Below, one piece after another: positions 7,275 through 34,736 of a DNA stretch of 64,000 nt. The translations under genes were made by a program, and so were the position numbers. Source of the DNA: Thermoplasmata archaeon. Lineage in GTDB: Archaea; Thermoplasmatota; Thermoplasmata; RBG-16-68-12; JAGMCJ01. How positions within the stretch are numbered: the first letter of the stretch is position 1; each line of letters starts with the position of its first letter. Under the pieces are notes generated by a model. That model worked only from the letters and a program-made list of their open reading frames with translations, was not told the DNA's origin and made no database searches. The stretch lies in NCBI GenBank assembly GCA_046761045.1, contig JBHIFJ010000003.1, positions 4,835 through 68,834 of the forward strand. Direction: 5' to 3'.

Positions 7275-8273
7275 ATGGTGAGAGTGAGGTTCCTATCACT
7301 CGTTCTTCTTTCATCCTTTCTTGCATTTGGATTCATGATGGCGGGGGCTTCGGCCGGAGAAATGTTTGGTCAGGTTGCCGACATCGGCATGATTGACCAG
7401 ACACAGCTTTTCTTGCGCGTTCGCTCGGATTTCGACATCATTGACAGTGGAAGCGTCATCCCCATCTACGTGACTGTTGTCGATCAGCACGACGTTCCCG
7501 TACCTGGTGTGACAGTGAAGGTCTCTGTTGTGTCGCCCTCTGGGGAACGAGTTGACTCGTTGTACGTCACGGATTCCAATGGCGAGGTGACATTCGACTT
7601 CACAGCATCCACTCAAGGTCAGGATGAGTACGCAATCGAGTTCTTCGCGGAGAAGGTCAAATGCATACCCGATAACGACCGCCTATCAATGGTCGTCTTC
7701 GCGCCCTCTCCCCCCTTAAGCATCGAGGACGGAACGGAAGCGGTCTCCGTGGGGATAGGTGTTCTCGTCGCTGCCGCCTTTCTCAGCACGGAAGCTGGCT
7801 GGTACGCGATATTCAGAACGCTGATATTCCCGCTGTACACTAGACTCAGGAAGGAGGAGATACTCGATCACTTCGTTCGTGGGCAGATTTACGGTTTCAT
7901 AATGTCTCATCCAGGCGAGCACTACAATGCCATCAGAGGGTATCTGAAGGTCACGAATGGAACGCTCTCACATCACCTCAGGACATTGGAGATGCAGGGC
8001 TTCATAAAGTCACATCGAGATGGCGTCTTGAAGAGGTTCTATCCCGTTGACATGAGGATCCCACGGGATAAGGGCATAAAGCTCAGTGATCTTCAGATGG
8101 GTATGGTGGAGGTGATAAGGAGCTCCGATGGCGCCACGCAGGCTGACATCTGCAAGGAGCTCGGAGTGAGCCAGCAATGCGTGAGCTACAACCTCCGCAA
8201 CCTCAGTCGGGAGGGCGTTCTGAGGTTCGAGAGGGATGGAAGACTGAAGAGATATTATCTAGTAGACAACTGA
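7275..8273 (+). CDS. Membrane-tethered transcription regulator: signal peptide, Ig-like (Big_1-like) ectodomain, TM helix, two winged-helix HTH domains
   Basis: The domain order is as follows. An N-terminal hydrophobic signal (LSLVLLSSFLAFGFMMAGASA) is followed by an Ig-like block (IPIYVTVVDQHDVPVPGVTVKVSVVSPSGE..DSNGEVTFDF). A TM segment (VSVGIGVLVAAAFL) precedes two ArsR/MarR-like wHTH units (GEHYNAIRGYLKVTNGTLSHHLRTLEMQGFI and ATQADICKELGVSQQCVSYNLRNLSREGVL). Confidence 0.7.
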   Translation: MVRVRFLSLVLLSSFLAFGFMMAGASAGEMFGQVADIGMIDQTQLFLRVRSDFDIIDSGSVIPIYVTVVDQHDVPVPGVTVKVSVVSPSGERVDSLYVTDSNGEVTFDFTASTQGQDEYAIEFFAEKVKCIPDNDRLSMVVFAPSPPLSIEDGTEAVSVGIGVLVAAAFLSTEAGWYAIFRTLIFPLYTRLRKEEILDHFVRGQIYGFIMSHPGEHYNAIRGYLKVTNGTLSHHLRTLEMQGFIKSHRDGVLKRFYPVDMRIPRDKGIKLSDLQMGMVEVIRSSDGATQADICKELGVSQQCVSYNLRNLSREGVLRFERDGRLKRYYLVDN

Positions 8274-8380: not shown

Positions 8381-8487
8381 CGCTATTCGAAATTCGTTCT
8401 ACAGTTGGGTGCGGCTGCTTGTTGAGTAGACGCGCCGCGTAGGACGACAACCTAGAATTTGTGAGTAACCTGCATGCAGGAGGAAAA

Positions 8488-11319
8488 ATGATGAACGGGA
8501 AGAAACTAAGTGGAGTATCCGTCATCCTTTCTCTTGTTCTCGTGAGTGTGTTGGTCGTGGGATTGTTCCCGATCGGCGCACTCGCAGGAGAAGAGACAAG
8601 GGCGGAGAATATCTTGAGGGTGGGCGCCCAAGACGACACCAAGACCAGAAATATCTTCGGTGCAACAGATGTGTGGACATCGAATGTCTTGACGCCTGTG
8701 TATGAAGGTGTGGGTCAGGTAGACCCAGACACCGAGGACCCGATTCCCTATATCTTGAAAGGGATCGATGCCGATGACGATGGTGTATTAGATTTGGATG
8801 AGTACGGGGTCTACGGGAAAGAGACAGGAACTGAGGGCCGTGAGGTCACTGCCTACTATGATATGAACTGGGTGTACTCTCATGACGGCGTCCAGATGAC
8901 CATGGATGACCTGCTTTTCGGATACCACATAAACGCGCTGGATCCCCTCACGATATCCCTGGACGTTCTGAAGGACAAGAACAATCTCCCCGGGTCAAAC
9001 TACTCAACGAGCCGGTGGCTGAACGTTTGGCCGGTCCAGGGCAGCTGGGATCCTGCAATACCACTCGGACCCGACACTAGCCTGACATTCGCCCTTCATT
9101 TCTCGCAAACGGCAGACTACGCCAACTTCGTGAAGTACACGCTCAACGGTGCAACGGTAATGCCAAGACATGTCTGGGAGGGAACGGGCAAGATCTGTTT
9201 GGAGGCCACCAATGGTGTCTGCACCTCTTGGAAGGAGAACATTCACGCGGACTTCGGCTATGCATACGATCCAGTGACGCACAATGGCGTCCCTGCCGCG
9301 GCGCAGAACTCTTTTTCATACAGTGCCGCCGAGGAGTGGTTGCCAAGCGATGATGAGGTCATTGGAACTGGAGCATTCGAGTTCGACATCTGGAATCCCG
9401 GTGTGTCTGCCTTGCTCAACAGGTTCGAGGACTACTTCGGCGATGCCCTTGCCTGTACCAAGGACCCTGTGTCAGGGAAGTGCGCTGGCGAGTTCTACAA
9501 GTACATGCACAAACCCTACATCGAGGGGATGCTGTTCAAGATCTACAAGACGGCACAGGCAGCCGTCTTTGCGCTTCAGGCGGGAGAGATTGACGTTGTC
9601 TCCTGGTCCGTTCCTCCTGAGTTCGTCGGTGGACTGTTGGTCGACCCGAACATAGGAATCTTCAACACCGCCGAGAAGGGTTTCTTCTATCTTAGCTACA
9701 ACATGAGGATGTCTCCATTCGGCTATCCCAACAATGATCCGTCGCTGGGTGACGATGGTTTGTACCTGAGGAAGGCAATGGCCCATGTCATCGACAAGAA
9801 GACGATCGTGACGACGCTGCTGCAGAACTTCGGCGTTGCCGGAGACCAGCCGGTTAGTCCCGCCTTCACAACATTCTACAACGGCTCGGTTCAGAAGTAT
9901 GATTTCGAGCTGGATGCCGCAAGGCAACTTCTGGATGACCACTATACGGTTGGCGGACTCAGTCTCGGCTACGGACCCAACGGATACAGGAACCTTCCGA
10001 CCATAGGAGACCGCCCTGTCGACATACTGTGTCCGCAGGCAGACTACGATCCGATCAGGGCATCAGCATGCAACATGATCGCGGCAAACGCGAGGGACGT
10101 TGGACTGAACTTCCACGCAAAGCTCCTCGCATTCGGAGAGATCGTGACCAGACTCGACAATCGCGACATGGAGATGTGGGTCCTAGGGTGGAGAATCGGC
10201 TCAGATCCTCCAGACTACTATCACGCCTTCTTCTATTCTGGCAATGCACCTGCGGGGCAGAACTATGAGGGATTCCAGAACGAGACCTTTGATAATCTGA
10301 TTACCGCCGCTCGGGCAACGCTAGACGCAGACGAGCAGGCTGAACTGATTAAGGAGTGCAGCGGAATCCTCATGGATGCCGTGCCCTACGATGTCCTCTA
10401 CTTCAGAACGAACATCGAGGCCTACAGGTCGGATAGGTACGACAATTGGACCGTCGGACCCGCCGGATCCATTTTCGGAGGGTCCTTCTGGTCCAGGATA
10501 GGAATCCATGCGCCCTCTCCGGACGCATTGACGATTTCACCGCCAGTGATGAAATCCGATGTTGCATCAGGTTCGACCGAGGACGTTGCGGCCACGGTGA
10601 GGGATCCTGACGGCAATGTGGTGGCAGGCGCTCCCGTTCAGATGACACTGAGCGGTTCCGGGGCCCTCGGCAACCTGAGCATTCCTGGTGGAGAAACCGG
10701 AACTACCGTCAATGGCGTGACGAACATCAACGGGAAGTTGGTCGCGAAGTACCTCGCACCCACGGTGGCGAACGAGACAGAAGTGTTTGTATCCGCGCAG
10801 GCACTAGAGTTTGGGGAATATCCCGCCTCAACTGTGCAGTTCTCCCGAGTGGATGTTCATCCCCCAGGCACCCAATTCCTATCGGTACTGGTGGAACCGA
10901 CCTTCTTCGCTATTGAAGAGGGCGGTACGATGACAATCGAGGTGACGGTTACCGACCAGGCCGGCGTGGCTGTGGATGGAGCGCTTGTCAATCTGGTGAC
11001 GATTCCGTCAGGACCAACGCTCGCTCCAGACTCCGGAACAACGATAGTTGGATCAATCGGTACGATTGTCTTCACTGCGCCTGAGTCACTTCCGGAAGGC
11101 CTGGAGGAGCAGCTGTACACACTGACGGTCACCGCCAACCTGACCGGATACCTCCCAGCCGAAGACTCGAAGGATATCACTATCCTAGCTCCGACTTTGG
11201 CTGGAGGAGGCGGCGGTTCCAGAACGGAAGTTCCGGCGCTCGATGTCGTCGCGACCGTGGCGGTCATCGCGCTCGTGACCGTGAGCCTTGCTGTATACCG
11301 TGGAACGAAGAGAAGGTAA
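8488..11319 (+). CDS. ABC transporter substrate-binding protein, family 5 (Opp/Dpp type), with C-terminal Ig-like domains and a TM anchor
   Basis: The start is set at ATG 8488 after GGAGGA (the track start 8461 is GTG). A signal-anchor precedes a family-5 SBP core (YKTAQAAVFALQAGEIDV, FFYLSYNMR, LRKAMAHVIDK, GWRIGSDPPDYY). Two Big_1-like repeats, a Gly-rich linker, a TM helix and a KRR tail follow. Confidence 0.85.
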   Translation: MMNGKKLSGVSVILSLVLVSVLVVGLFPIGALAGEETRAENILRVGAQDDTKTRNIFGATDVWTSNVLTPVYEGVGQVDPDTEDPIPYILKGIDADDDGVLDLDEYGVYGKETGTEGREVTAYYDMNWVYSHDGVQMTMDDLLFGYHINALDPLTISLDVLKDKNNLPGSNYSTSRWLNVWPVQGSWDPAIPLGPDTSLTFALHFSQTADYANFVKYTLNGATVMPRHVWEGTGKICLEATNGVCTSWKENIHADFGYAYDPVTHNGVPAAAQNSFSYSAAEEWLPSDDEVIGTGAFEFDIWNPGVSALLNRFEDYFGDALACTKDPVSGKCAGEFYKYMHKPYIEGMLFKIYKTAQAAVFALQAGEIDVVSWSVPPEFVGGLLVDPNIGIFNTAEKGFFYLSYNMRMSPFGYPNNDPSLGDDGLYLRKAMAHVIDKKTIVTTLLQNFGVAGDQPVSPAFTTFYNGSVQKYDFELDAARQLLDDHYTVGGLSLGYGPNGYRNLPTIGDRPVDILCPQADYDPIRASACNMIAANARDVGLNFHAKLLAFGEIVTRLDNRDMEMWVLGWRIGSDPPDYYHAFFYSGNAPAGQNYEGFQNETFDNLITAARATLDADEQAELIKECSGILMDAVPYDVLYFRTNIEAYRSDRYDNWTVGPAGSIFGGSFWSRIGIHAPSPDALTISPPVMKSDVASGSTEDVAATVRDPDGNVVAGAPVQMTLSGSGALGNLSIPGGETGTTVNGVTNINGKLVAKYLAPTVANETEVFVSAQALEFGEYPASTVQFSRVDVHPPGTQFLSVLVEPTFFAIEEGGTMTIEVTVTDQAGVAVDGALVNLVTIPSGPTLAPDSGTTIVGSIGTIVFTAPESLPEGLEEQLYTLTVTANLTGYLPAEDSKDITILAPTLAGGGGGSRTEVPALDVVATVAVIALVTVSLAVYRGTKRR
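9448..9627 (+). repeat. Near-identical 180-nt tract shared with the paralogous SBP gene (copy A)
   Basis: Hand alignment to the reverse complement of 33554..33733 gives 6 mismatches in 180 nt. A run of 93 nt (9535..9627) is identical. Confidence 0.85.
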
Positions 11320-11337
11320 ACCCTTCTCACCCTTCCC

Positions 11338-11346
11338 TTTATTTTT
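11338..11346 (+). terminator. Oligo-T tract after the binding-protein gene (candidate archaeal terminator)
   Basis: The tract TTTATTTTT lies 19 nt after the TAA stop at 11317-11319. It is directly upstream of the internal promoter copy 3. Confidence 0.35.
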
Positions 11347-11382
11347 GGGCCCCGCGACGAGCCATTCGTGAGCCCACTGGCT

Positions 11383-11411
11383 ACAAAATCCCGTACAAAT
11401 GACGTTAAATA
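11383..11411 (+). promoter_or_regulatory. Shared operator-plus-TATA element, copy 3 (internal promoter for the permease and ATPase genes)
   Basis: The sequence ACAAAATCCCGTACAAATGACGTTAAATA ends 33 nt before ATG 11445. Confidence 0.65.
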
Positions 11412-11444
11412 TTAGATGAAGTATTGTTTGGCTCGGTAGTTCTT

Positions 11445-13157
11445 ATGAGACTGAGAAGCTTCCTCATCAGGAGGGCCTTACACACAGTCATCACGCTTGT
11501 TGTCATCCTGGTCCTCCTGTTCATAATCTTCAGAATGATGCCCGGGGATCCGACGAGATTCTTCATTGAACCGGGACAGCCACCGGACGTCAGGGACCGG
11601 CTTCTTGTCGATTTTGGATTCTCCAAGTGGACGACCGCTCCCGGAGTCTATCGTGTGGCCTCCTTCGAGGCCTTCGATGATGGTGCATACGGGATCAGGG
11701 TGGAAGTCAATGCCACAGGCGTCATCGAACCCCCTGAGTTCCACAATGAAACCCTTTACTCTTCATACGTGAGGGCGAAGCGATACTTCCCGAGCGAGGA
11801 TCCCTTGGTGATTTGGAATGTAACGTTCTCCGAGGCTCCCACGGGCAACATCACCGTGGGCCAGACCTTTAACGTTACTTTCGATGTGAAGTCACCGGAG
11901 GGAATGACAAGGATAGTCTCAATTGACCTGGTTAGAAACGATGACCCCAACCAGACGGTGACGCTCAACCTCACAGGGTCAGGTGCTCAGATTGGCGCGA
12001 GCGGTCAGTGGGGGAGATACACCACGACAATGAGCGCCACTCAGCCTGGGTTCTATAGAATGACCCTGTCCGTCCATGATTCCACGCTCGGTCTCACAGA
12101 AGAAGCGGAGTACGGCTACGCGGTCAATCCAAGCGACATTCATCCCTTTCAGCTCGTTGTTGGTGAGGGCAACATTTTCACCTCACGCAATGTGTTCGCG
12201 GAATCGATCGGGGAGCTGACCCTCGCCGTCAAGGTGGAGGTCGAAGGCAAGCTCGTACCCATCGACGACTCTGGCTTGGTGGGATATGTCACCTCTCCGA
12301 CGGGAGAGGTCTCCACGCTCCAGCCCCCTGATCAGCTGATACACCCTCAGATAGTGGTTCCGCTTCCAGTGTGGGAGCAATTCTGGGAGTACTTCACTTC
12401 CATGATAACAGGTGATTTCGGGATTTCCTTCTTCTCCAAGCGACCTGTTTGGGTTGAGATTGCCCAAAGGGCGCCCGCCACAATCCTCCTCTTCGGGACC
12501 GCACTTGCTCTTTCTGCCCTTATCGGCATCGGCATCGGAGCGATACTGGCGTGGCGGCGGGGAACAAGCCTGGAGATGTCAGCCATCGTTGTCAGCCTGT
12601 TCTTCTACTCCATGCCACTGTTCTGGTTTGGATTGATTCTGCTCTGGGCATTCGGCTTCAGGCTTCAGTGGTTCCCATTGGGCGGGATAGGCGGTGTGGA
12701 CGAAGCCGGAAGGCCACTTGAAGGCCTTGCCTATATCGCCGACATCTTGTGGCACATGACACTTCCCCTGGTCACGCTTATGATGGTCAATCTGGCGGGA
12801 TACGTCCTCCTCATGCGAAACTCGATGCTTGAAGTTCTCGGAGAGGACTATGTCACAACCGCAAAGGCCAAGGGCCTGAGCGAGAGGACCGTGATGTACA
12901 AGCATGCGGCAAGGAACGCGCTTCTGCCCGTTGCCACGGTCATCGCCCTTGGCGTGGGTGGCGTCATCAGTGGTGGCGTTCTCACGGAGACGATATTCTC
13001 CTGGCCCGGAATGGGCTACTTCCTTGTAACCTCCACGATACAGCAGGACTACCCAGCGGTTCAGGGTACATTCTTCCTCCTGGCAATAATGACTGTGCTG
13101 GCGAACGTGGCTGCAGACGTGCTGTATGCCTACCTTGATCCAAGGGTGAGGTTGTAG
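11445..13157 (+). CDS. ABC permease, OppB/DppB type, with an extracytoplasmic insertion of about 245 aa
   Basis: The start MRLRSFLIRRALHTVITLVV is a typical OppB N-terminus (the track start 11424 is TTG). Conserved GDFGISF and EDYVTTAKAKGL (EAA-loop) blocks are present. A beta-rich, sequon-rich insert separates TM1 from the GDFG block. Confidence 0.85.
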   Translation: MRLRSFLIRRALHTVITLVVILVLLFIIFRMMPGDPTRFFIEPGQPPDVRDRLLVDFGFSKWTTAPGVYRVASFEAFDDGAYGIRVEVNATGVIEPPEFHNETLYSSYVRAKRYFPSEDPLVIWNVTFSEAPTGNITVGQTFNVTFDVKSPEGMTRIVSIDLVRNDDPNQTVTLNLTGSGAQIGASGQWGRYTTTMSATQPGFYRMTLSVHDSTLGLTEEAEYGYAVNPSDIHPFQLVVGEGNIFTSRNVFAESIGELTLAVKVEVEGKLVPIDDSGLVGYVTSPTGEVSTLQPPDQLIHPQIVVPLPVWEQFWEYFTSMITGDFGISFFSKRPVWVEIAQRAPATILLFGTALALSALIGIGIGAILAWRRGTSLEMSAIVVSLFFYSMPLFWFGLILLWAFGFRLQWFPLGGIGGVDEAGRPLEGLAYIADILWHMTLPLVTLMMVNLAGYVLLMRNSMLEVLGEDYVTTAKAKGLSERTVMYKHAARNALLPVATVIALGVGGVISGGVLTETIFSWPGMGYFLVTSTIQQDYPAVQGTFFLLAIMTVLANVAADVLYAYLDPRVRL

Positions 13158-13158
13158 C

Positions 13159-16100
13159 ATGGTGTCCAAGCAGAGACTTTATGAGAGGTTTCGAAGCTAC
13201 TACAAGGCCTTCAAGCAGAACTGGGATCTCTTCAAGGCGAGCAGGATTGGCCTTGTTGGTCTTGGAATCCTCGTGTTCTTCTTGGTGATAGCTCTAATCA
13301 CGCCGGCCCTGAATCTTCGCGATCCCATAAACTGGAGAGCCCCCGAAGAGGATCTGATTAGGGTCGACCAGTACTGGTACGTTGACACATCAACGGTGCT
13401 GTTCAAGGCTGGAGACCCCATCAACACATCCATTGCCTTCAGGCTCATACCAAAGGAACTAGACCCCTCTTCGGATCGAATCTATTTCGCCTCCGGAGAT
13501 AAGGTCATTGCCCTGCGCCCGTCAACAGGACAGTCCGTTTGGTATGTCGGCAGCGAGTCCGATAAGGTTTGCTGTTTCCAAGCCGATTCCACGGTGACCG
13601 CGGGGCCGGTCGTGGTCAACTACGGTTCGGTCGACAGCCCGGAGTTCGCAGACTGGGTCCTGTATTTCGGAACTGAGAGCGGGGAGTTCTACCAGCTGAA
13701 TGAGGCTGGAACCCTCGAGATCGACCTGACGAGACGATCCTCACACATACCAACGGGGGAGGATGTCTTCACGGCCACGCTCGATAGCACCGTAACGGGT
13801 ATTGCCGTTTTCGCGGACGAGACATCCAATCGAAGGGCATATGAGAGGGTTTTCGTCGGGACCGAGGAGGGGAAGGTGTATGCCTTTTCCAGCATTTGGA
13901 AGGACGACGAGACCTGGTTCTACAATGTCAGCTCCAACCAATGGATGAGAGCATATCCGCAGGAACGTCCCTTCCCTCAAGACCGGCACGTCATGGCATA
14001 CAGTCCAGAGTCAAAGAAGGTCCTCCTCGTCAGCGGAGACAACGGTGTTGGGTCTCAGAGCGCGGACCTGGTCCAGACGTGGATATTCAACCTCACCAGT
14101 AAGGAGTGGACTGAGTTGGACAACCTCTCGAGTGCGCCCCCTTACAGGCGAGAGAGCGCAATGGCCTACGTTCCAAGCTGGAATTCCGCACTGATGTACG
14201 GTGGGAAGCAGAAGACCTCAATACTGGATGATATGTGGCAGTTCAACTTCACTACTGAGAGATGGAATCAGGTGAACTATAGCGGCGCCCCCGATTGGAG
14301 AAGCGGGCACTCGATGGCATACAGCAGCGGTGACAACGCAGTCTACATGTTCGGGGGAAGAGTTACGGACCTTAACAAGACGTTGAAGCTGAACCTCACA
14401 AGTCTTACGTGGTCTGATGTGCCGACTAACTCAAGCGCAATCGCCCGGATGGGCACATCCATGATATATGATGCTGCGAAGAACAGACTCATCATATTCG
14501 GTGGCGAAGAGTACGTTGAGGACAACGATAACAATCAGACCAAACTCTTGAACCTCTCCTCAGGTCAGTGGGGATACATCGAGAGCCCTCAGGACCTGAC
14601 CCCGAGGGCATGGCAGTCCCTCGCCTATGACAGTGTCACGAACACTGCAATTCTCTTTGGCGGTCTCGGCACGAACCCCGAGCGAATACAGGAAACGTGG
14701 CAGTTGAACCTCACGACCGACAACTGGACTCAACTGAACACAACCCTCATGCCCTCTGCACGTCACGGTTCCTCAACGGTCTTCTTGGACAGCTCGGAGA
14801 TGTTCCTCTTCGGGGGAGATGACTATCAACCCAGCGAGCTTTGGAACATGACAGCGCCTCGAGGACCAATCGTGATGGCGGATCTTCCCTTGATGATCAA
14901 GAATTCTCCCATGTTCTCACCCGCCGTTGCCTACTCCTCGGGCGGGAGCTATTCTGGTGAATACCTTGTCTTCAATGCTGGAGGATATCTGGCCAATGTC
15001 TTCACAAGGAACGGGTCATATGTATGGACCGATGAGGCCGCTCACGGATACATCTTGAACGGCACAATACTGATAGGAGACGATTGGTCTACGGCGCCGA
15101 TAATCTCCCAGCCAGAAGGCTCTATTCCTCCCCTGATATTCCTGGGGACCAGCAACGGTTTCATACACGCATTCTATCCCGAGGACGGAGGGGTCTACGA
15201 ACCTTGGGTCACGATCCCTCCTGGAGAGGAGTTCCCGGACGGAAAGCAGAACCAGAACAACTCCATAATCGGGATACAGGTCGCGAGGACCATCCTGGAC
15301 ATAGATGGGGGCGTTCTGACAAGGCCAGAGCCGTATGGCTCATACGTTTACGTGGGCTCGAGCACGGGCACCTTCTATGCCATCCAAAGGGACAGAATCA
15401 GGGAGCTGCCCGCGGGCAGGGCGCGCGGAATCTTTGAGGTACCTGTGCAACCAAGGGAGCAGTTCGTGTTCAACACACCCCCCTACTATCTCGTCGGGTC
15501 AAGTATCGTTCTCATTGCTGGATACAATGACAACGGAACCGCGAACGACTGGACCGATGACAGGAGCACGATATATTCCTTCAACACAGATGGCACTGTC
15601 TCATGGAAGCAGACATTTGATGCACGGATTAATGGCGCACTCAATGTGTGGAGGGACGAGCCTGGTTCCCGCCATCTCCACAAGAGCGTCTTTGCCGGAA
15701 TGACCGACGGAACGATTCAGGTCTATTCATCAAGCGGTGAGTACCTCGCTCCATTGCCGCCCACGTGGATGTCCTCCGTCCCAAGCGGAAACACGTATTG
15801 GCTCGGCACGGACAACCAGGGGAGGGACCTGTACAGTCAATGGATGTGGGGCACCCGTGTGGCTTTGACGGTCGGGCTGTTGGCGGCTTTCTTCTCCATT
15901 TCCATTGGCACGATCATAGGGCTGGTCTCTGGATATACCGGGGGCAAGGTCGACTCCGTTTTGATGAGATTCACGGACGTGATACTTGTCCTTCCAGGTC
16001 TCCCGCTCGTCATCATCCTGGCCGCTGTCCTCGGTGCCGGGATATGGAACATCATTCTGGTCATAACAATAGTGGGTTGGCCGGGAACAGCCAGAGTCAT

Positions 16101-16467
16101 AAGGTCCGAGGTTCTCTCTTTGAAGGAAAGGCCGTTCATCGACTCAGCGAGAGTAACGGGGGCAAGTAACATCAGGATAATGTTCAAACACATTGCCCCA
16201 AACGTCCTCCCGCTCGCCTTCCTCTACATGACGTTCGCCGTGAGCGGTGCGATTCTCACCGAGGCGGCACTGAGCTTCATCGGCCTAGGGGATGTGAACA
16301 CACCCAGCTGGGGACAGATGTTGATGTTCATCCAACAGTCCAACGTCCTGGGTTCCTGGTGGTGGCTTCTCCCGCCGGGTCTGGGCATCACATTCCTCTC
16401 GCTCGCGTTCTATCTAATCGGCAGAGGATATGAGCAAATAGTCAATCCACGTCTGAGGCAGAGGTGA
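13159..16467 (+). CDS. ABC permease, OppC/DppC type, carrying an ectodomain of about 830 aa built from nested beta-propeller repeats
   Basis: The 1102-aa product has an N-terminal TM helix. The canonical OppC core appears only from about residue 870 (YWLGTDNQGRDLYSQWMWGTRVAL ... PFIDSARVTGAS ...). Between the two lie six Kelch-like blades flanked by PQQ/BamB-like blades. Confidence 0.85.
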   Translation: MVSKQRLYERFRSYYKAFKQNWDLFKASRIGLVGLGILVFFLVIALITPALNLRDPINWRAPEEDLIRVDQYWYVDTSTVLFKAGDPINTSIAFRLIPKELDPSSDRIYFASGDKVIALRPSTGQSVWYVGSESDKVCCFQADSTVTAGPVVVNYGSVDSPEFADWVLYFGTESGEFYQLNEAGTLEIDLTRRSSHIPTGEDVFTATLDSTVTGIAVFADETSNRRAYERVFVGTEEGKVYAFSSIWKDDETWFYNVSSNQWMRAYPQERPFPQDRHVMAYSPESKKVLLVSGDNGVGSQSADLVQTWIFNLTSKEWTELDNLSSAPPYRRESAMAYVPSWNSALMYGGKQKTSILDDMWQFNFTTERWNQVNYSGAPDWRSGHSMAYSSGDNAVYMFGGRVTDLNKTLKLNLTSLTWSDVPTNSSAIARMGTSMIYDAAKNRLIIFGGEEYVEDNDNNQTKLLNLSSGQWGYIESPQDLTPRAWQSLAYDSVTNTAILFGGLGTNPERIQETWQLNLTTDNWTQLNTTLMPSARHGSSTVFLDSSEMFLFGGDDYQPSELWNMTAPRGPIVMADLPLMIKNSPMFSPAVAYSSGGSYSGEYLVFNAGGYLANVFTRNGSYVWTDEAAHGYILNGTILIGDDWSTAPIISQPEGSIPPLIFLGTSNGFIHAFYPEDGGVYEPWVTIPPGEEFPDGKQNQNNSIIGIQVARTILDIDGGVLTRPEPYGSYVYVGSSTGTFYAIQRDRIRELPAGRARGIFEVPVQPREQFVFNTPPYYLVGSSIVLIAGYNDNGTANDWTDDRSTIYSFNTDGTVSWKQTFDARINGALNVWRDEPGSRHLHKSVFAGMTDGTIQVYSSSGEYLAPLPPTWMSSVPSGNTYWLGTDNQGRDLYSQWMWGTRVALTVGLLAAFFSISIGTIIGLVSGYTGGKVDSVLMRFTDVILVLPGLPLVIILAAVLGAGIWNIILVITIVGWPGTARVIRSEVLSLKERPFIDSARVTGASNIRIMFKHIAPNVLPLAFLYMTFAVSGAILTEAALSFIGLGDVNTPSWGQMLMFIQQSNVLGSWWWLLPPGLGITFLSLAFYLIGRGYEQIVNPRLRQR

Positions 16468-16477
16468 TCCGGTGGCG

Positions 16478-17743
16478 ATGCTAGAAGTGAACAATCTCAA
16501 AACCTACTTCAGAATATTGAAGGGGACCGTGTACGCTGTTGACGGTGTCACGTTCCATCTCGATCGCGGTGAAACCATGGGCCTCGTGGGAGAATCTGGA
16601 TGCGGGAAGACAACGACCGCGTTTGCCATCACGAGGCTCCTTCCGTCCAACGGTAGAATCGTTGGAGGCGAGATCATCTTCGATGGCACTCTCATTGGTC
16701 GGGCCGACTTCCCCACCGAGCTCGCGGAGGTCCTGAAGGAACCACTGTGGCTCGAGGAGACCAAGGCACTCGTTGAAAGAAAGATGAACAGGCTCGCCAT
16801 CTCAGAGGGGGATCCCTCAACTGTGATGGAGTCAAGGATGCTGCTGGAGCAGGAGAGGGCATGTGTCGAGGAGGTCAATGCCATCCTCAACGATGCCAGC
16901 CTCTCAAAGGAGGAAATGAAGGGAGAGCTCGAGGACCTCGTTGATGGAGAACTCAATAGCTTCCTGGCAAGGCGGCGGAGGAGGCGAATCGAGCGGGAAA
17001 TCGAGGAGAAGATGATGGATATCAGGTGGAGCAAGATATCGATGATCTTCCAGGGAGCCATGAACGCCTTCAATCCGGTCTACAAGGTCGGTGATCAGAT
17101 CGTGGAGGCCCTGCTACGCCACGAGGACATGACGAAGGATGAGGCAAAGGAGAGGGTCCTTGAGCTGTTCGACCTCGTGGGTCTCGACCGCTCGCGAGTC
17201 ACAGGCTATCCGCACGAGTTCAGCGGCGGCATGAGGCAGAGGGCTATCATTGCCATGTCGCTTGCCTGCAACCCGCAGCTCATAATAGCCGACGAGCCAA
17301 CGACCGCGCTCGACGTCATCATGCAGGACAGAATACTCGGGGAGATCAGAGACCTTCAGAAAGAGTTCCACATTGCTATGATGATAATCACACACGACAT
17401 CTCGGTCGTCGCAGAGGTTTCTGAGACGATAGGAATCATGTATGCGGGGAAGCTCTTCGAGTTCGGCGACATAGTCTCCATCTTCGAGAGGTCTGCGAAC
17501 CCCTATACCATCGGGCTGACGGGGGCCTTCCCCAGCATCAAGGGCGAGCGAAAGAGGCTGATATCCATCCCCGGCTCCCCGCCGGACCTCTCAGCGCCAC
17601 CGCACGGATGCAGATTCCATCCCAGATGCAAATTCGCACAGGACATATGCAGGAAGGAGGAACCCAAGAGCGTCGAAGTGGCTAAGAACCACTGGTCCAT
17701 GTGCCATTTCGCCAGGGAGATATATTCGGGCCAACTCGCCTGA
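16478..17743 (+). CDS. ABC ATPase, OppD type, with a helical insertion of about 95 aa
   Basis: The Walker A motif (GESGCGKT), signature (FSGGMRQR), Walker B (LIIADEPTTALD) and the oligopeptide C-terminal Cys/His motif (HGCRFHPRC..C) are all present. A charged insert lies between IIFDG and ISMIFQG. Confidence 0.85.
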   Translation: MLEVNNLKTYFRILKGTVYAVDGVTFHLDRGETMGLVGESGCGKTTTAFAITRLLPSNGRIVGGEIIFDGTLIGRADFPTELAEVLKEPLWLEETKALVERKMNRLAISEGDPSTVMESRMLLEQERACVEEVNAILNDASLSKEEMKGELEDLVDGELNSFLARRRRRRIEREIEEKMMDIRWSKISMIFQGAMNAFNPVYKVGDQIVEALLRHEDMTKDEAKERVLELFDLVGLDRSRVTGYPHEFSGGMRQRAIIAMSLACNPQLIIADEPTTALDVIMQDRILGEIRDLQKEFHIAMMIITHDISVVAEVSETIGIMYAGKLFEFGDIVSIFERSANPYTIGLTGAFPSIKGERKRLISIPGSPPDLSAPPHGCRFHPRCKFAQDICRKEEPKSVEVAKNHWSMCHFAREIYSGQLA

Positions 17744-17752
17744 GGTGATAAG

Positions 17753-18958
17753 TTGGAAGCGTCAGAGGAAGCAGTTGCCGCGGAAATGGATGAGGACGTT
17801 GTCTATAGGGTCACGAATCTCAAGAAGCACTTCCCGATAAAGTCGGGATTCCTTGCCTCACTCTTTGGAAGGGAGAAGGTCGTTCACGCTGTGAATGGAG
17901 TTGATTTCTCGATCGGTGAAGGCGAGATTCTAGGGATGGTTGGCGAGTCCGGTTGCGGCAAGACAACATGCGGACGTCTCCTCGTCAGACTCGAGACGCC
18001 CACAGAGGGCCACATGTACTTCACCGGCAAGGACATCGCCGCGCTCAAGGGAAGGGAGCTGAAGGTGTTTCGCAGGGATGTCCAGATGGTCTTCCAGGAC
18101 CCATACGAATCGCTGAATCCGAGATTGACAGTCTTCGCAACCGTTGCGGAGCCCCTGGTCGTTCATGGTGTGGGAGAGTCCTCGGATGAGAGGGTGGACA
18201 TGGTGGCAAAGGCGCTCCAGTATGCGGAGCTGAAACCGCCTGAGGAGTTCATGTACAGGTATCCTCACGAGTTGAGCGGGGGGCAGAGGCAGAGGGTCGC
18301 GATTGCAAGAACCCTCGTGCTCCGGCCGAAGTTCATTGTGGCGGATGAGCCCGTGAGCATGCTCGACGTTTCCATCCGGGCTGGAATAATGAATCTCATG
18401 CTGAGCCTGAGAGAGCAGTACAAGATCCCGTTCCTCTTCATATCCCACGATGTGTCCGTGACCAGATATATGAGCCATAGAATCGCTGTCATGTATCTCG
18501 GGTTCATAGTGGAGCTCGGCTCATCGGAGGATGTCATCAAGGACCCGATGCATCCGTATACGGAGGCTCTGCTGTCGGCGGTTCCCGTTCCGGATCCAAA
18601 GGCCAAGCACGGAAGGGTGAAGATTAGGGGGGATCTTCCCAGCCCCATAGACCTCCCGCCCGGGTGCGTGTTCCATCCCAGATGCCTGTACCGTAAGGAC
18701 ATATGCGACAAGGAGCTGCCGCAGTTCAAGGAGGTGAGGCCTGGTCACTTCGCCCTGTGCCATTTCGCTGGGGAGCTTCCGATTAAGAGGCCTGATGACG
18801 AGGAGGTATTCGAGGAAGGTGTCTGCGACCTCTGCAAGGCCACAATCAAGAAGGGAATGCCGTTCGCGCGTTGCGACTGCAACAAGCTGTACCACGAATC
18901 TTGCGCCGGACAGCTCGGCGAATGCCCCGTGTGCAAGAAGGGTCTCCAGGTGGAGTGA
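17753..18958 (+). CDS. ABC ATPase, OppF type, fused to a C-terminal C4HC3 zinc finger
   Basis: The Walker A motif (GESGCGKT), signature (LSGGQRQR), Walker B (FIVADEPVSMLD) and PGCVFHPRC..C are present. The tail is C-x2-C-x12-C-x-C-x4-H-x2-C-x6-C-x2-C. The start is uncertain (TTG 17753 or ATG 17786). Confidence 0.85.
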   Translation: MEASEEAVAAEMDEDVVYRVTNLKKHFPIKSGFLASLFGREKVVHAVNGVDFSIGEGEILGMVGESGCGKTTCGRLLVRLETPTEGHMYFTGKDIAALKGRELKVFRRDVQMVFQDPYESLNPRLTVFATVAEPLVVHGVGESSDERVDMVAKALQYAELKPPEEFMYRYPHELSGGQRQRVAIARTLVLRPKFIVADEPVSMLDVSIRAGIMNLMLSLREQYKIPFLFISHDVSVTRYMSHRIAVMYLGFIVELGSSEDVIKDPMHPYTEALLSAVPVPDPKAKHGRVKIRGDLPSPIDLPPGCVFHPRCLYRKDICDKELPQFKEVRPGHFALCHFAGELPIKRPDDEEVFEEGVCDLCKATIKKGMPFARCDCNKLYHESCAGQLGECPVCKKGLQVE

Positions 18959-19545
18959 TGAACAGGTATGCACTGGTTATCGGGGTAGCCTTCGTCTTGG
19001 TGACAGTCTTCTCGGCCACCACTCTTGCCTTGACCGTAGACACGTACCAGGCCTTCACAGACGCCCGCATCAAGCTCACTCCATCGGCGGGCAACATCTA
19101 CATCAAGGAGGTGCGAATCCCTCTGATAAACTCCCTGGACACGGATGTTCGCGTGACGATTCTCGTGGAGGTGAACAACCCTACGAGGCTGGACGTCTGG
19201 GTGTACAACATCGAGTTCCAGCTCTGGATGCTCAACGAGAGCACGATGGGCAACATTGGCAACCCTCAGGCGATGGAGCAATCGTACGTGTGGACGGGTG
19301 GCTTCTTCCGGTATGATGACCCTGACTACTTCGTTCCGTCGGGGGGGAACGCCACGCTCCTATCCTCGCTCACTGTGACATCCAGGCCAAAGCTCGAGGC
19401 TCTCAACAAGACAGACGCACAGGGGAGGTACTATCCTTTCATAAGGGCAGACATGAGATACAATGTCGTGGACCTGGACATTGCCGTTCCGGTCCATGGA
19501 ATTTACTTCTTCAGCACGACAGGGGTGGAGCCCTATGAGGGTTAG
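18958..19545 (+). CDS. N-terminally anchored beta-rich surface protein (LEA_2/NDR1-like fold is possible)
   Basis: The ATG overlaps the OppF stop codon (TGATG). The N-terminus MNRYALVIGVAFVLVTVFSATTLA is a signal-anchor, and the rest is beta-rich with N-x-S/T sequons. The track ORF starts earlier, at 18871. Confidence 0.55.
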   Translation: MNRYALVIGVAFVLVTVFSATTLALTVDTYQAFTDARIKLTPSAGNIYIKEVRIPLINSLDTDVRVTILVEVNNPTRLDVWVYNIEFQLWMLNESTMGNIGNPQAMEQSYVWTGGFFRYDDPDYFVPSGGNATLLSSLTVTSRPKLEALNKTDAQGRYYPFIRADMRYNVVDLDIAVPVHGIYFFSTTGVEPYEG

Positions 19546-20083
19546 CAGGAAGTCCGTCTACAGCGGGTTGCTCGCGGTTCTGTGGACCTTCTGCGGAGCG
19601 ATTACTATGGCGAGCTTCTTCTTCATCTCCTTCTTCCCCGAGTATTCGCCCTTTGCCGAGGGGGAGATCGGGTTCAGCGTTATCTTTGCACCGCTCGCGG
19701 TCAGCTTCATGGTGGGTCTCCTCGCCAACGAGCACAATGTGTCCGTGATGATTCTTCTTTCGATATCGATAGTCTTCATTGCAGCCGTCATTGCGTTCCT
19801 GGCGGTGTACGCCCCCATTCTGTCCGGAATCGTGAGCAATGCCACCTATTTGCCGTCGACTGACGAGCAGAGGATGAGCATGGTCTTCTCCACGCTGTTT
19901 ATCATTCCCCTGACGGTGATAGGCACGGTTCTCGGAAAGGCCGTCGGCGGAGTGGTTCTACCCTCCGAGGAGGAGCTGATCGAGAGGAAGCTCCTGATCG
20001 AGCGGACGAGGGAGTGGCACGAGCGGATGGCGAGAAGGGATCCGGAGTCGGAGAAGTCGGAATCCACCTCCCCAGAGGAATAG
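19535..20083 (+). CDS. Polytopic membrane protein with an acidic C-terminal tail (function unknown)
   Basis: ATG 19535 overlaps the end of the previous gene by 11 nt. About four hydrophobic helices are followed by a charged tail (EEELIERKLLIERTREWHERMARRDPESEKSES). Confidence 0.55.
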   Translation: MRVSRKSVYSGLLAVLWTFCGAITMASFFFISFFPEYSPFAEGEIGFSVIFAPLAVSFMVGLLANEHNVSVMILLSISIVFIAAVIAFLAVYAPILSGIVSNATYLPSTDEQRMSMVFSTLFIIPLTVIGTVLGKAVGGVVLPSEEELIERKLLIERTREWHERMARRDPESEKSESTSPEE

Positions 20084-31861: not shown

Positions 31862-34705
31862 CTACCGTCTGCGTCTCTTGGGCTTCTTCATGACAAGCAG
31901 AGAGACCGCCACGACTATCACGATAATGACGGCAATTGCCCCTATCAGGAGGTATGTCATGTCCCCGCCGTGGTCTACCGCCTTCGGTTCGATGACCGTG
32001 AGAATGACCTCATAGGGATCCGAGCTTATTCCTCCATCCTGGGCCTCAACCACCAGTGCGTACTCTGCCTCTGTGCCTGGCACAGACGTGGGCGCCGTGA
32101 TGAGGAAGCTGACTTGTCCGCCAACGGTCATTCCGACATCGGGAGAGATGGTGGGACCACCAGTTTCGGGCGTCACAATGACTGTGGCTCCTTCGACCAG
32201 GTTTCCGTTCTGGTCTCGCACTTCCACTTCGAGTGGAAGGGTCCCTTTCGTCTGAACGATGTCACCAGCATCCCATCTCGGGAGAACAGACAGGAACGGA
32301 ACTCCCTTGGGATAAATCATGATATCAGCCCTGACCAGCCCAGTTTCTTCATCATCGAATCTCGCACTACTGTATAGGGTGACGCGGAGGGTCTCGTTCG
32401 CAGTTTCATTCATTGTCGGGGCATGGTAGGTTGCTATGAAGACACCGTTTATGTCGGATTCACCGGTCACTTCGAATCCCTGCTGGCTCTGATAGGTGAG
32501 GTTTCCCTTTAGGATGACGAGACCCATTGTTACCGTCGCGCCCTCACGAGGAGTACCATCCAGGTTCCTCACGGTGGCTTTCACCGCCCAGGTGCTCTCC
32601 TCCGTTTCAGTGCTAGCCGTCATTGCCGAGGGAACCTCCAACGAGATCCTCATCGTCTTCTTCACAGGTGCATGTATCCCAATCCAGGACCACCAGGAAC
32701 CTCCGAAAATGGAGCCAGCAGCCCCAACGGTCCAGTTCTCGAACCTATCCGATCTGTACGGCTCTATGTTGTTTCGGAAGTAGAGAACATCGTAGGGCAT
32801 TGCATCCGTCAAGAGGCCACTGCATTCCTTTATGATTGCAGTCTGCCTGTCGAGATCGAGAGTGGCGCGCGCTTCGGTGATAAGGCCGTCAAAGGTCTCA
32901 TTCTGAAACCCTGGATAGTTCTGTCCGGCCATGGCGTTTCCAGAGTAGAAGAAGGCGTAGTAGTAGTCAGGCGGATCGGAACCTATTCTCCAGCCGAGCA
33001 CCCACATTTCCATGTCCCTGTTGCTCAGCCTCTGGATTATCTCTCCAAATGCCAGAAGCTTCGCCTCGATGTTCAGTCCCACATCCCTCGCTTTTGCCGC
33101 GATCATGTTGCATGCAGATGCTCGGATGGGATCATAGTCTGCCTGTGGGCATAGTATCTCGATCTTTCGATCTCCTATCGACGGGAGATTCCTGTATCCG
33201 TTGGGTCCGTATCCCAGGGCGGGGCCTCCTATTGTGTAGTGGTCATCGAGTATCTGTCTCGCTGCGTCCAGATCGAACTCGTACTTGTGAACCGACGCAT
33301 TGTACCATCTCACGCTCGCAGAACTCACTGGCTGGTCCCCGCCGACGCCGAAGTTCTGAAGAAGCGTCGTCACGATAGTCTTCTTGTCGATCACATGAGC
33401 GATTGCCTTTCTTAGATAGAGACCATCGTCCCCATTCGCTGGGTCATTGGCCGGATAGCCGAATGGAGACTTCCGCATATTGTAGGCGAGGTAGAAGAAC
33501 CCCTTCTCGGCGGTCGTCTTTATCTCAACATCGGGATCCTCAATCAGCGGATTGACGAACTCAGGAGGAACGGACCAGGAGACAACGTCAATCTCTCCCG
33601 CCTGAAGCGCAAAGACGGCTGCCTGTGCCGTCTTGTAGATCTTGAACACCATTCCATCAATGTAGGGTTTGTGCATGTACTTGTAGAACTCGCCAGCACA
33701 CTTACCTGACACAGGGTCCTTGGTACAGGCAAGCACATCTGCCTTGTAGTCCCAGTACTTGTCTATTCGGACCGATACACCCTGATTCCATTCAGTGAAC
33801 TTGAATGGTCCCGTCCCGATGACGAGGTCGTCCTCCATAAGCCATGATTGTGCCTTGCTGAACTGGAACGCATCCGGGTCCGAGGCAGGAACGCCGTTGT
33901 GCTTCACGGGATCGTACGCATACTTGAAGTCTTCGTGGATGTTCTCCTGCCAGGTCAAACAGATACCGCTCTCGGCCTCCCTGCACACTTTCCCCGTGCC
34001 CTCCCATATGTGCCTTGGAAGGACGCTTCCCGCGTTCAATGTCCAATCCCTGAACCTGGCGTAGGTGGCCTGCTGGGAGAAGTGCAATGCGAACGTCAGT
34101 GATTCATTCTCACCGACCGGAACCTGGTCATCGAAGTCTGCCTGGACAGGCCAGACGTTCAGCCATCTGTTGGTCGTGTAGTTGGTCCCTGGCAGGTTGT
34201 TCTTGTCTTTGAGGACATCGAGGGAGGTTGTGAGCGGATCCAGGGCGTTGAGGTGGTAGGCGAAGAGAATGTCGTCCACGGTTGCCTGGACACCGTCATG
34301 GAAGTAGACCCCGTTCAGGTCATAGTATGCCGTGACCTCACGCGGATCTGTGCCGCTCTTCTTTGCATAGACCCCATACTCGTCGAGCTCGAAGATCCCG
34401 TCTTCGTCAGCGTCTATTCCCAAGAGATTGTAGGGAACAGGATCCTCTGTTGCTGGGTCAACCTGACCTACACCCTCATATATGGGGCCCAGAACGTTGC
34501 TGCTCCAGACATCGTTCACGGCCAGCATGTTCCTTGACTTCATGTCGTCTTGGGCACCGATTTTCAGAATCAGCTCCTGTCTTGTCTCGCTGGCCTGAGC
34601 CATCTGCGCCCAGGTCCCGAGAAAAGCCAGAAGAACGAATGCCATCATCACAGCGAGAGCAATCACCCGTCCCTTCATTTCACGTCTCCTTTTTGCACCA
34701 GTCAT
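31862..34705 (-). CDS. Second family-5 ABC substrate-binding protein, a paralogue of 8488..11319, with Ig-like tail and TM anchor
   Basis: The protein is collinear with the first SBP and, by eye, about 70-75 percent identical over the core. Its Ig-like tail is divergent, followed by a TM helix and KKPKRRRR. I place the start at ATG 34705 (the track start 34726 is TTG, only 11 nt from the TATA box). Confidence 0.85.
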   Translation of the reverse strand: MTGAKRRREMKGRVIALAVMMAFVLLAFLGTWAQMAQASETRQELILKIGAQDDMKSRNMLAVNDVWSSNVLGPIYEGVGQVDPATEDPVPYNLLGIDADEDGIFELDEYGVYAKKSGTDPREVTAYYDLNGVYFHDGVQATVDDILFAYHLNALDPLTTSLDVLKDKNNLPGTNYTTNRWLNVWPVQADFDDQVPVGENESLTFALHFSQQATYARFRDWTLNAGSVLPRHIWEGTGKVCREAESGICLTWQENIHEDFKYAYDPVKHNGVPASDPDAFQFSKAQSWLMEDDLVIGTGPFKFTEWNQGVSVRIDKYWDYKADVLACTKDPVSGKCAGEFYKYMHKPYIDGMVFKIYKTAQAAVFALQAGEIDVVSWSVPPEFVNPLIEDPDVEIKTTAEKGFFYLAYNMRKSPFGYPANDPANGDDGLYLRKAIAHVIDKKTIVTTLLQNFGVGGDQPVSSASVRWYNASVHKYEFDLDAARQILDDHYTIGGPALGYGPNGYRNLPSIGDRKIEILCPQADYDPIRASACNMIAAKARDVGLNIEAKLLAFGEIIQRLSNRDMEMWVLGWRIGSDPPDYYYAFFYSGNAMAGQNYPGFQNETFDGLITEARATLDLDRQTAIIKECSGLLTDAMPYDVLYFRNNIEPYRSDRFENWTVGAAGSIFGGSWWSWIGIHAPVKKTMRISLEVPSAMTASTETEESTWAVKATVRNLDGTPREGATVTMGLVILKGNLTYQSQQGFEVTGESDINGVFIATYHAPTMNETANETLRVTLYSSARFDDEETGLVRADIMIYPKGVPFLSVLPRWDAGDIVQTKGTLPLEVEVRDQNGNLVEGATVIVTPETGGPTISPDVGMTVGGQVSFLITAPTSVPGTEAEYALVVEAQDGGISSDPYEVILTVIEPKAVDHGGDMTYLLIGAIAVIIVIVVAVSLLVMKKPKRRRR
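33554..33733 (-). repeat. Near-identical 180-nt tract shared with the paralogous SBP gene (copy B)
   Basis: This is the inverted copy of 9448..9627. The identical 93-nt run is 33554..33646. Confidence 0.85.
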
Positions 34706-34736
34706 GGTTCTCCCCGTCCATTCCAAAGCCCTAGGG

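Follow-up and report, generated by a model that had tools for sequence, protein, structure and literature searches.

The window analysed here, a stretch of 64,000 nucleotides from contig JBHIFJ010000003.1 of a Thermoplasmata archaeon (assembly GCA_046761045.1), carries an operon for an ATP-binding cassette (ABC) importer of the Opp/Dpp class, whose third gene encodes an OppC/DppC-type permease. With high confidence, the anatomy of this permease is the following: a six-bladed Kelch propeller is inserted in the C-D hairpin of blade 3 of an eight-bladed propeller, which itself occupies the loop between the first and second transmembrane segments (TM1 and TM2) of OppC. A preliminary description of this DNA had placed a Kelch propeller nested inside a pyrroloquinoline quinone (PQQ)/BamB-like propeller in the first external loop of the permease. 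This architecture is borne out by profile matches, two structural models, fold searches and a natural insertion/deletion, and all the blade motifs that were quoted then were retrieved from the OppC translation by regular-expression search.

The permease is recognised by its C-terminal membrane core. The Pfam profile BPD_transp_1 matches residues 917-1101 (E 4.5e-29; 101.9 bits versus a cutoff of 26.4), and residues 67-300 of E. coli DppC (8z1v_B) align to residues 866-1101 of the query (E 2.4e-45). At the other end, OppC_N falls just short of its cutoff at residues 19-52 (E 4e-4; 20.6 bits versus 23.9) and scores 23.8-25.2 bits in the homologues P0059, P0064 and P0072. TM1 is separated from the conserved 'GTD.QGRD' core by about 817 amino acids (aa) in the window protein versus about 17 aa in DppC, and the hydropathy profile is free of membrane segments from residue 57 to residue 896. 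The 19 N-x-S/T sequons of the protein all lie within residues 89-792 and none is found in the membrane parts, a distribution that fits an external location of the ectodomain. At the sequence level, the substrate class of the importer (peptide, sugar or metal) is not assignable: all NCBIfam equivalog models score under their cutoffs on OppC, the best being Opp4C with 238.7 bits versus 350. Many archaeal Opp-class systems import sugars; the closest solved relatives of the binding protein encoded by the operon, DppA, HbpA and AppA, are of the peptide type and are matched with low scores, under all equivalog cutoffs.

The inner domain is identified as a Kelch propeller by profile and by fold. The Kelch_KLHDC2 type of Pfam matches residues 248-560 with an E-value of 1e-50, and four other Kelch models also score over their cutoffs. 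The window protein was modelled with AlphaFold2 on an alignment of 20 homologues. In this model residues 67-862 are all-beta, with a block-wise predicted local distance difference test score (pLDDT) mostly of 75-93, and DSSP assigns 24 strands to residues 252-551. These make six blades, the number that had been read from the Kelch motifs. One blade is built from the first two and the last two Kelch strands, which brings the ends of the insert next to each other. With Foldseek, residues ~250-555 match the six-bladed Kelch domains of KLHDC2, KLHDC3 and KEAP1 with TM-scores normalised to target length (TMt) of 0.7-0.85. The positions conserved over the Kelch-bearing homologues are those of the structural GG/W/R consensus. 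A sequon of the form N-[LFV]-[TS] is found in the C-D hairpin of each of the six blades (positions 256, 311, 363, 412, 465 and 517, hence every ~51 residues; nucleotides 13924-14718), out of a total of 13 sequons in the 312 Kelch residues. Judging from their spacing, the six hairpin sequons would place six N-glycans in a ring on a single face of the propeller; fewer of these sequons are retained in the distant clade of homologues.

The outer domain is preceded by a linker, 'DPINWRAP', that is invariant in the homologue alignment. DSSP finds 12 outer strands before the Kelch domain (67-244) and 18 after it (560-862), about 30 in total. Its fold was judged on a model of the ectodomain of P0021, a homologue devoid of the Kelch domain and 32-49% identical to the outer propeller of the window. 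This model (pLDDT 90.3, predicted TM-score 0.90) matches BamB (TMt 0.70-0.75), the designed eight-blade Cake8 (TMt 0.84, root-mean-square deviation 4.2 A) and YxaL in fold searches. Propeller folds are thus seen in both models, as the preliminary description had anticipated. In these models, the outer propeller is eight-bladed and BamB/PQQ_2-like at the fold level. Three outer blades on either side of the Kelch domain had originally been proposed; the blades with the recognised motif are indeed present, but the count is eight and not six, blades 4 and 7 having no recognisable '(I/V)(Y/F)xG(T/S)xxGxxYA' motif. In blade 3, the Kelch domain follows strand C ('KVYAFS') and precedes strand D ('ELWNMT'), with ~2.75 blades before it and ~5.25 after it. 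At the profile level, PQQ_2 matches residues 105-212 of the window protein with an E-value of 9e-5 (22.7 bits versus a cutoff of 27.6), and its cutoff is passed by the homologues P0054 (31.9 bits), P0059 (40.2), P0057 (43.2) and P0058 (61.3).

Two more specific identities were rejected for the outer propeller. The first is BamB proper, for which the score is about 20 bits versus equivalog cutoffs of 285-423; moreover, the host is an archaeon and the domain lies within a permease loop. The second, a PQQ enzyme, was suggested by a vicinal Cys-Cys pair at residues 136-137 (13564-13569, 'KVCCFQ'), which is kept in the close clade and in P0015. PQQ methanol dehydrogenases have a vicinal disulfide. 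The pair is missing, however, in the distant Kelch clade and in the Kelch-less forms, and PQQ dehydrogenases match the P0021 model poorly (TM-score 0.44-0.45). Nothing was found that points to PQQ binding, and there was no further sign of a cofactor site beside the Cys-Cys pair.

Homologues provide a direct view of the nesting. P0021 and P0023, two OppC proteins of ~755 aa, lack exactly the Kelch block, with 5-6 residues in place of 316 in the window protein. The indel is clean, spans ~310 aa and falls between '..KVYAF' and 'LW..', which shows that the Kelch domain is nested inside the outer propeller. The outer propeller of the Kelch-less forms sits in the same permease loop, and the P0021 locus keeps the order regulator, binding protein, OppB, OppC, OppD. 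Kelch-bearing and Kelch-less copies occur together in two metagenome-assembled genomes (MAGs), at loci L009/L018 and L008/L019, respectively; locus L018 looks split or cut.

An architecture of this kind could also result from an artefact, namely a separate gene for the ectodomain joined to OppC by a frameshift, a chimeric assembly or a mis-called open reading frame (ORF). Versions without the permease core do exist (P0011, P0012 and P0015), and locus L016 apparently contains a split or shortened gene. In this locus, from a complete MAG chromosome (CP070767.1, L016 9839-12359), two ORFs of 503 and 319 aa stand where a single long OppC gene would be expected; the copy may have decayed or been rearranged, or a sequencing error may have shifted the frame. 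Against an artefact, the frame of the window gene, which starts 1 nt past the OppB stop, is open and unbroken for 1102 codons, and the same fusion is present in about 20 independent contigs or MAGs, down to 29% identity in the ectodomain. A search with the ectodomain yielded these about 20 full-length relatives with 100% query cover, all from Thermoplasmata/Thermoplasmatota metagenome bins, P0002-P0010 being 55-71% and P0016-P0020 29-34% identical to the window ectodomain. They form at least 15 clusters, derived from various samples and assemblers, and can be aligned over their whole length; each of them has TM1 before the insert and the membrane core after it. The recurrence of the fused architecture therefore rules out an assembly or frameshift artefact, to which I give a vanishingly small probability: the ectodomain is not a separate gene accidentally joined to the permease.

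The family is small and confined to uncultured Thermoplasmatota. When 185,579 species genomes were scanned for 'DPINWRAP', 14 relatives were obtained, all of them from Thermoplasmata, Methanomassiliicoccales or 'Methanobacteriota' MAGs, while an exhaustive phmmer search with the Kelch-less ectodomain among 1.84 billion representatives gave 116 matches with E <= 1e-3, of which 45 had E <= 1e-10. Where the relatives have a name in the databases, it is 'ABC transporter permease subunit' or 'kelch repeat-containing protein'. Insert-bearing and insert-free forms are mixed in a neighbour-joining tree built on the outer propeller; the support of this tree is too weak for gains and losses to be counted.

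The Kelch domain is not the only head found on this propeller. P0057 and P0064 contain an insert of ~300 aa made of five repeats, 'YRMYY.G.NGT..RILSA.S.DG.NW', with weak GH32N/GH130 Pfam signals and, for the P0064 insert type, a GH130 match in the PDB (4onz, E 1.2e-5). P0061 (residues ~230-620) and P0077 (1-170) contain 7-8 copies of a 45-50-aa repeat, 'G.Y.SLA....G.P.IAYYD...G.LKYA', for which neither a Pfam nor a PDB sequence match was found and which is probably another propeller type. Inspection of the sequences places the inserts of these four proteins between strands A and B of blade 3, in the hairpin that precedes the one holding the Kelch domain. Given the standard propeller topology, the A-B and C-D loops, and hence both insertion sites and both membrane tethers, should lie on the same face of the outer propeller. 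Locus L023, which encodes P0057, shares with the window the order OppB-OppC-OppD-OppF followed by two small membrane proteins, a metallophosphatase-like protein, a YjeF_N/carbohydrate kinase protein and a major facilitator superfamily transporter. OppF is 69% and YjeF 50% identical between the two loci, and the L023 OppC core differs from that of the window by very few substitutions, with no alignment over window residues ~209 to 543. L023 is therefore an orthologue of the window locus, and its GH130-like insert in place of the Kelch domain indicates that the head was exchanged in an otherwise orthologous transporter.

The ectodomain diverges much faster than the membrane part. Identity to close orthologues is 94-96% for the membrane core (residues 866-1102) and 79-91% for TM1, versus 55-74% for the outer propeller and 55-69% for the Kelch domain. 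The insert found in OppB (see below) is likewise far more diverged than the OppB core. One reading of this pattern is an arms race, in which head swaps and divergence would be driven by viruses or other antagonists that use the transporter as a receptor, the heads being shields or decoys. The contrast between a core 94-96% identical and an ectodomain 55-74% identical, the presence of three unrelated heads at one blade (in one case in an orthologous locus) and the ring of N-glycan sites are all features that such a conflict could produce. I nevertheless regard it as very unlikely to be the driving force, because no viral or defence genes were seen adjoining the operon and because the heads are intact and well folded and, within clades, remain conserved at identities as low as 29%, pointing to a function that has been maintained. 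An arms race is in any case compatible with a binding role of the head.

What this function might be is suggested by the position of the ectodomain and by its association with binding-protein genes. In the E. coli DppABCDF importer, DppB and DppC differ in their TM1-TM2 periplasmic regions, and a scoop motif in this region of DppB enters the cleft of the binding protein DppA (PMC12136057). In addition, P0011, P0012 and P0015 consist of the N-terminal anchor and the double propeller without the permease core. An SBP_bac_5 gene lies directly downstream of the P0012 gene and another directly upstream of the P0011 gene, and the encoded proteins are 57% and 53% identical, respectively, to the binding protein of the operon; the P0015 contig is too short to inform on gene context. 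Propeller and binding-protein genes thus remain neighbours, in two opposite orders, where OppB and the OppC core have been lost. The window also encodes an orphan family-5 binding protein (31862-34726, minus strand; 954 aa), 62% identical to that of the operon over nearly its whole length, Ig-like (immunoglobulin-like) tail included, which lies between an arginase-family and a Nop56-like gene with no permease nearby. Locus L013 has one or more extra binding-protein genes upstream. These orphan and extra genes suggest that several tethered binding proteins serve one translocator.

I tentatively propose, at a level of confidence that remains somewhat below even, that the ectodomain combines a constant scaffold lying by the docking face with an exchangeable, glycosylated, non-catalytic binding head. 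The outer propeller would be the scaffold, fixed by the 'DPINWRAP' and 'APLPP' linkers beside the face where the binding protein docks, and it would act together with the membrane-tethered binding protein. The nested Kelch domain would be the exchangeable, N-glycosylated head, keeping a ligand or a partner at the mouth of the transporter, so that more transportable oligomers would be available locally. Candidates for this partner are a substrate, polymeric or glycosylated, and the stalked binding protein or proteins. The preliminary description had suggested ligand capture, a processing platform or a receptor function at this site. The binding/docking role proposed here is favoured by the exchange of heads in orthologous loci, by the adjacency of binding-protein genes in the absence of the permease, and by the position of the insert, which corresponds to the contact face between DppB/DppC and DppA.

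Several observations weigh against this proposal. Stand-alone proteins that contain the outer propeller only, such as P0063, have no binding-protein or transporter gene beside them, and the binding protein itself stays the same in length and domain composition whatever the head type. The top-face loops of the Kelch domain (B-C/D-A) are only slightly more conserved than those of the bottom face (0.69-0.71 versus 0.61-0.63), a difference to which structural GG and Arg residues contribute. The window model is poor in its membrane part (pLDDT about 40), so the predicted orientation of the ectodomain tower relative to the docking site is not fixed. Finally, the fast evolution of the ectodomain could equally reflect relaxed constraint or pressure from viruses.

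Instead of binding, the head could process the substrate, the permease being an enzyme-transporter fusion in which an enzyme trims or converts the substrate at the transporter: a mutarotase or an oxidase, for example, in the Kelch version, and a glycoside hydrolase or a phosphorylase in the GH130-like version. Some bacterial Kelch propellers, such as NanM and galactose oxidase, are enzymes; the heads of relatives resemble the five-bladed catalytic folds of GH130 and GH32; and JGI calls unrelated Kelch matches 'N-acetylneuraminic acid mutarotase'. Such a platform is nonetheless decidedly unlikely. The window protein scores 28-32 bits with NanM/mutarotase models whose cutoffs are 243-416, and a NanM-type mutarotase was rejected on these NCBIfam scores (31.7 bits versus 416 and 27.8 versus 243). 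The best solved relatives of the domain are substrate-adaptor Kelch proteins (KLHDC2/3/10 and KEAP1), which are not enzymes, and its conservation, as stated above, follows the structural consensus. The similarity of the other heads to GH130 is weak, and the peptide-type solved relatives of the binding protein also count against a processing head. Since no NCBIfam enzyme family matches window OppC over threshold, catalysis is unsupported for the Kelch version; an enzymatic head is conceivable for the GH130-like versions.

The tower could also have no part in transport and serve as a spacer, a glycocalyx or an adhesion element of a wall-less or S-layer archaeon, merely anchored on the permease. 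This would account for the heavy load of sequons in the Kelch domain (13 in 312 residues, one per blade hairpin) and for the fast evolution, and there are stand-alone anchored surface proteins with the same propellers, namely P0063, P0074, P0090 and P0015 (FN3-like tails). An arbitrary anchor, however, would not be expected to show the specificity that is observed: the insertion always occupies the same loop of OppC, in a single type of operon, and has invariant linkers; elaborations are also present in OppB, in both ATPases and in the binding protein of that operon; and the copies that have lost the permease still adjoin a cognate binding-protein gene. I therefore consider a pure envelope role possible but unlikely. 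A more elaborate version of the binding/docking proposal, to which I give still less credit, is a 'utilisome', that is, a scaffold into which heads have repeatedly been plugged, each capturing or sometimes cleaving a different extracellular polymer, be it a glycan, a glycoprotein or a protein, and delivering the products to the tethered binding proteins. If this were true, it would be a functional analogue of bacterial SusCD built on an ABC importer, with polymer capture and processing coupled to import.

The components of this permease, taken separately, have known counterparts. E. coli DppC/OppC and M. tuberculosis OppC/DppC (8z1v, 8z21, 8j5q and 8wd9) share the same core over its full length and have an extra N-terminal TM helix, the candidate for which in the window protein is the hydrophobic segment at residues 23-57, and their operons likewise encode OppB, two oligo_HPY ATPases and a family-5 binding protein. 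They differ in the length of the loop, ~17 aa versus ~817; the window system is moreover archaeal, with a binding protein tethered to the membrane on an Ig-like stalk. BamB/PQQ_2 propellers (3q7m and 8orr; YxaL, 7dxn; Cake8, 6tjg) superpose on the P0021 model with TMt of 0.70-0.84 over ~450-490 columns, but with 15-22% identity, and the window domain is not a lipoprotein of an outer-membrane machine. The Kelch domains of KLHDC2, KLHDC3 and KEAP1 have six repeats as well, at 14-20% identity; the window Kelch domain differs in being extracellular, rich in sequons and nested, and it has neither a BTB/BACK nor a ubiquitin-ligase context.

Precedents also exist for the way these parts could work together. 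In the maltose importer MalFGK2, a permease loop carries a folded domain, MalF-P2, which is ~180 aa long, Ig-like, located between TM3 and TM4, and contacts the binding protein. It is the closest functional precedent for docking, although it belongs to a different permease family without homology to OppC and the contact with the binding protein is only putative in the present case. The I-domain of integrin alpha subunits is a ligand-binding von Willebrand factor A (vWA) fold inserted in a blade loop of the beta-propeller of the subunit, in only some of the paralogues. It is a precedent for a scaffold propeller with an optional head; it differs in that the head is a vWA fold and not a propeller, in being eukaryotic and in being unrelated to transport. 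By analogy, the tower would resemble a greatly enlarged MalF-P2 loop with an integrin-I-domain-like plug-in head. The hybrid two-component sensors of Bacteroides have periplasmic double propellers that bind oligosaccharides and feed a kinase; like the OppC ectodomain, these are bracketed by TM segments, but they are arranged in tandem and not nested. In GlnPQ and OpuA, the importer permeases carry covalently attached extracellular binding modules of binding-protein fold, whereas the OppC ectodomain consists of two beta-propellers and the binding protein is encoded by a separate gene.

The folds and the transporter class are thus known. I could not find a published description of a propeller-in-propeller ectodomain in the loop of an importer permease, of the exchange of heads at a single blade, or of the elaboration of all five subunits, and these features are apparently undescribed. 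Opp/Dpp importers are understood as a compact translocator with a separate binding protein; here, one permease subunit is for three quarters an external double propeller and the other four subunits of the operon are elaborated as well. If the tower docks tethered binding proteins or captures substrate, it constitutes a new accessory layer in ABC import and suggests how wall-less or S-layer archaea that feed on detrital protein or glycan enrich their substrate at the membrane. A complete propeller within a blade hairpin of another one is rare, and three propeller types at the same blade, with one swap in an orthologous locus, amount to a natural modular exchange of heads on a fixed scaffold, which is relevant to protein evolution and design.

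Coordinates of the operon, of its regulator and of the segments of OppC (positions in the window)
Feature	Position	Strand	Details and evidence
Membrane-anchored regulator upstream of the operon	7275..8273	+	Pfam; same gene precedes the operon in L001 and L013
Family-5 solute-binding protein	8461..11319	+	952 aa; Pfam SBP_bac_5 and Big_1
OppB/DppB-type permease	11424..13157	+	577 aa; DppB 57-336 aligns from query residue 311
OppC/DppC-type ABC permease with 810-aa ectodomain	13159..16467	+	1102 aa plus stop, ATG start; ORF list, Pfam, DppC alignment, full-length homologues
OppC cytoplasmic N-terminus and TM1, residues 1-54	13159..13320	+	OppC_N-like; hydrophobic segment at residues 23-57
Linker and N-terminal part of outer propeller, residues 55-248	13321..13902	+	Closure strand, blades 1-2, strands A-C of blade 3
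Nested six-bladed Kelch propeller, residues 249-560	13903..14838	+	Kelch Pfam, DSSP, Foldseek, indel versus P0021/P0023
C-terminal part of outer propeller, residues 561-865	14839..15753	+	Strand D of blade 3 ('ELWNMT'), blades 4-8, conserved 'APLPP' linker
Canonical OppC/DppC membrane core, residues 866-1102 (TM2-TM6, coupling-helix region)	15754..16464	+	DppC alignment, BPD_transp_1
OppD ATPase	16472..17743	+	Pfam ABC_tran and oligo_HPY
OppF ATPase	17753..18958	+	Pfam ABC_tran and oligo_HPY

According to ORF and Pfam assignments, the operon (8461-18958) comprises the genes for the family-5 binding protein, OppB, OppC, OppD and OppF, in an order that is common to L001, L013, L023 and the P0061 contig. 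The binding protein has an Ig-like (Big_1) stalk, a Gly-rich linker and a C-terminal membrane anchor. OppB contains, after its TM1 and at the position of the DppB scoop motif, a beta-rich insert of ~260 aa (residues ~50-310) that gives only weak CBM_4_9, Invasin_D3 and SO2946-like matches in Pfam (CBM/Ig-like); this insert is ~25% identical to its L023 counterpart, the OppB core being far better conserved. In OppD, a charged, probably helical insert of ~100 aa (residues ~75-175) divides the ABC_tran match in two. OppF has, past oligo_HPY, a Cys/His-rich tail (residues ~357-398) of the form C-x2-C...C-x-C...H-x2-C...C-x2-C with a weak zf-C3H2C3 match, which is retained in the L023 orthologue.

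The regulator encoded upstream combines a Big_1/MG4-like Ig domain on the outside with a TM segment and two winged helices, of the HVO_0163 and MarR types; its counterparts lie at 1628-2605 in L001 and 3893-4969 in L013, and its external domain is similar to the Ig stalk that the binding protein carries. OppF is followed by genes for two small membrane proteins without a Pfam match (18958-20083, plus strand), which have equally placed counterparts in L023 (28% and 41% identity) and may belong to the operon. Elsewhere in the window are genes for a multihaem cytochrome c (Cytochrom_C552, paired CXXCH; 42427-43635, plus strand), an NrfD-type membrane subunit (45513-46856, minus strand) and a large cytochrome c assembly protein (58264-60948, minus strand), which suggest that this Thermoplasmatota genome confers a capacity for respiration or extracellular electron transfer.

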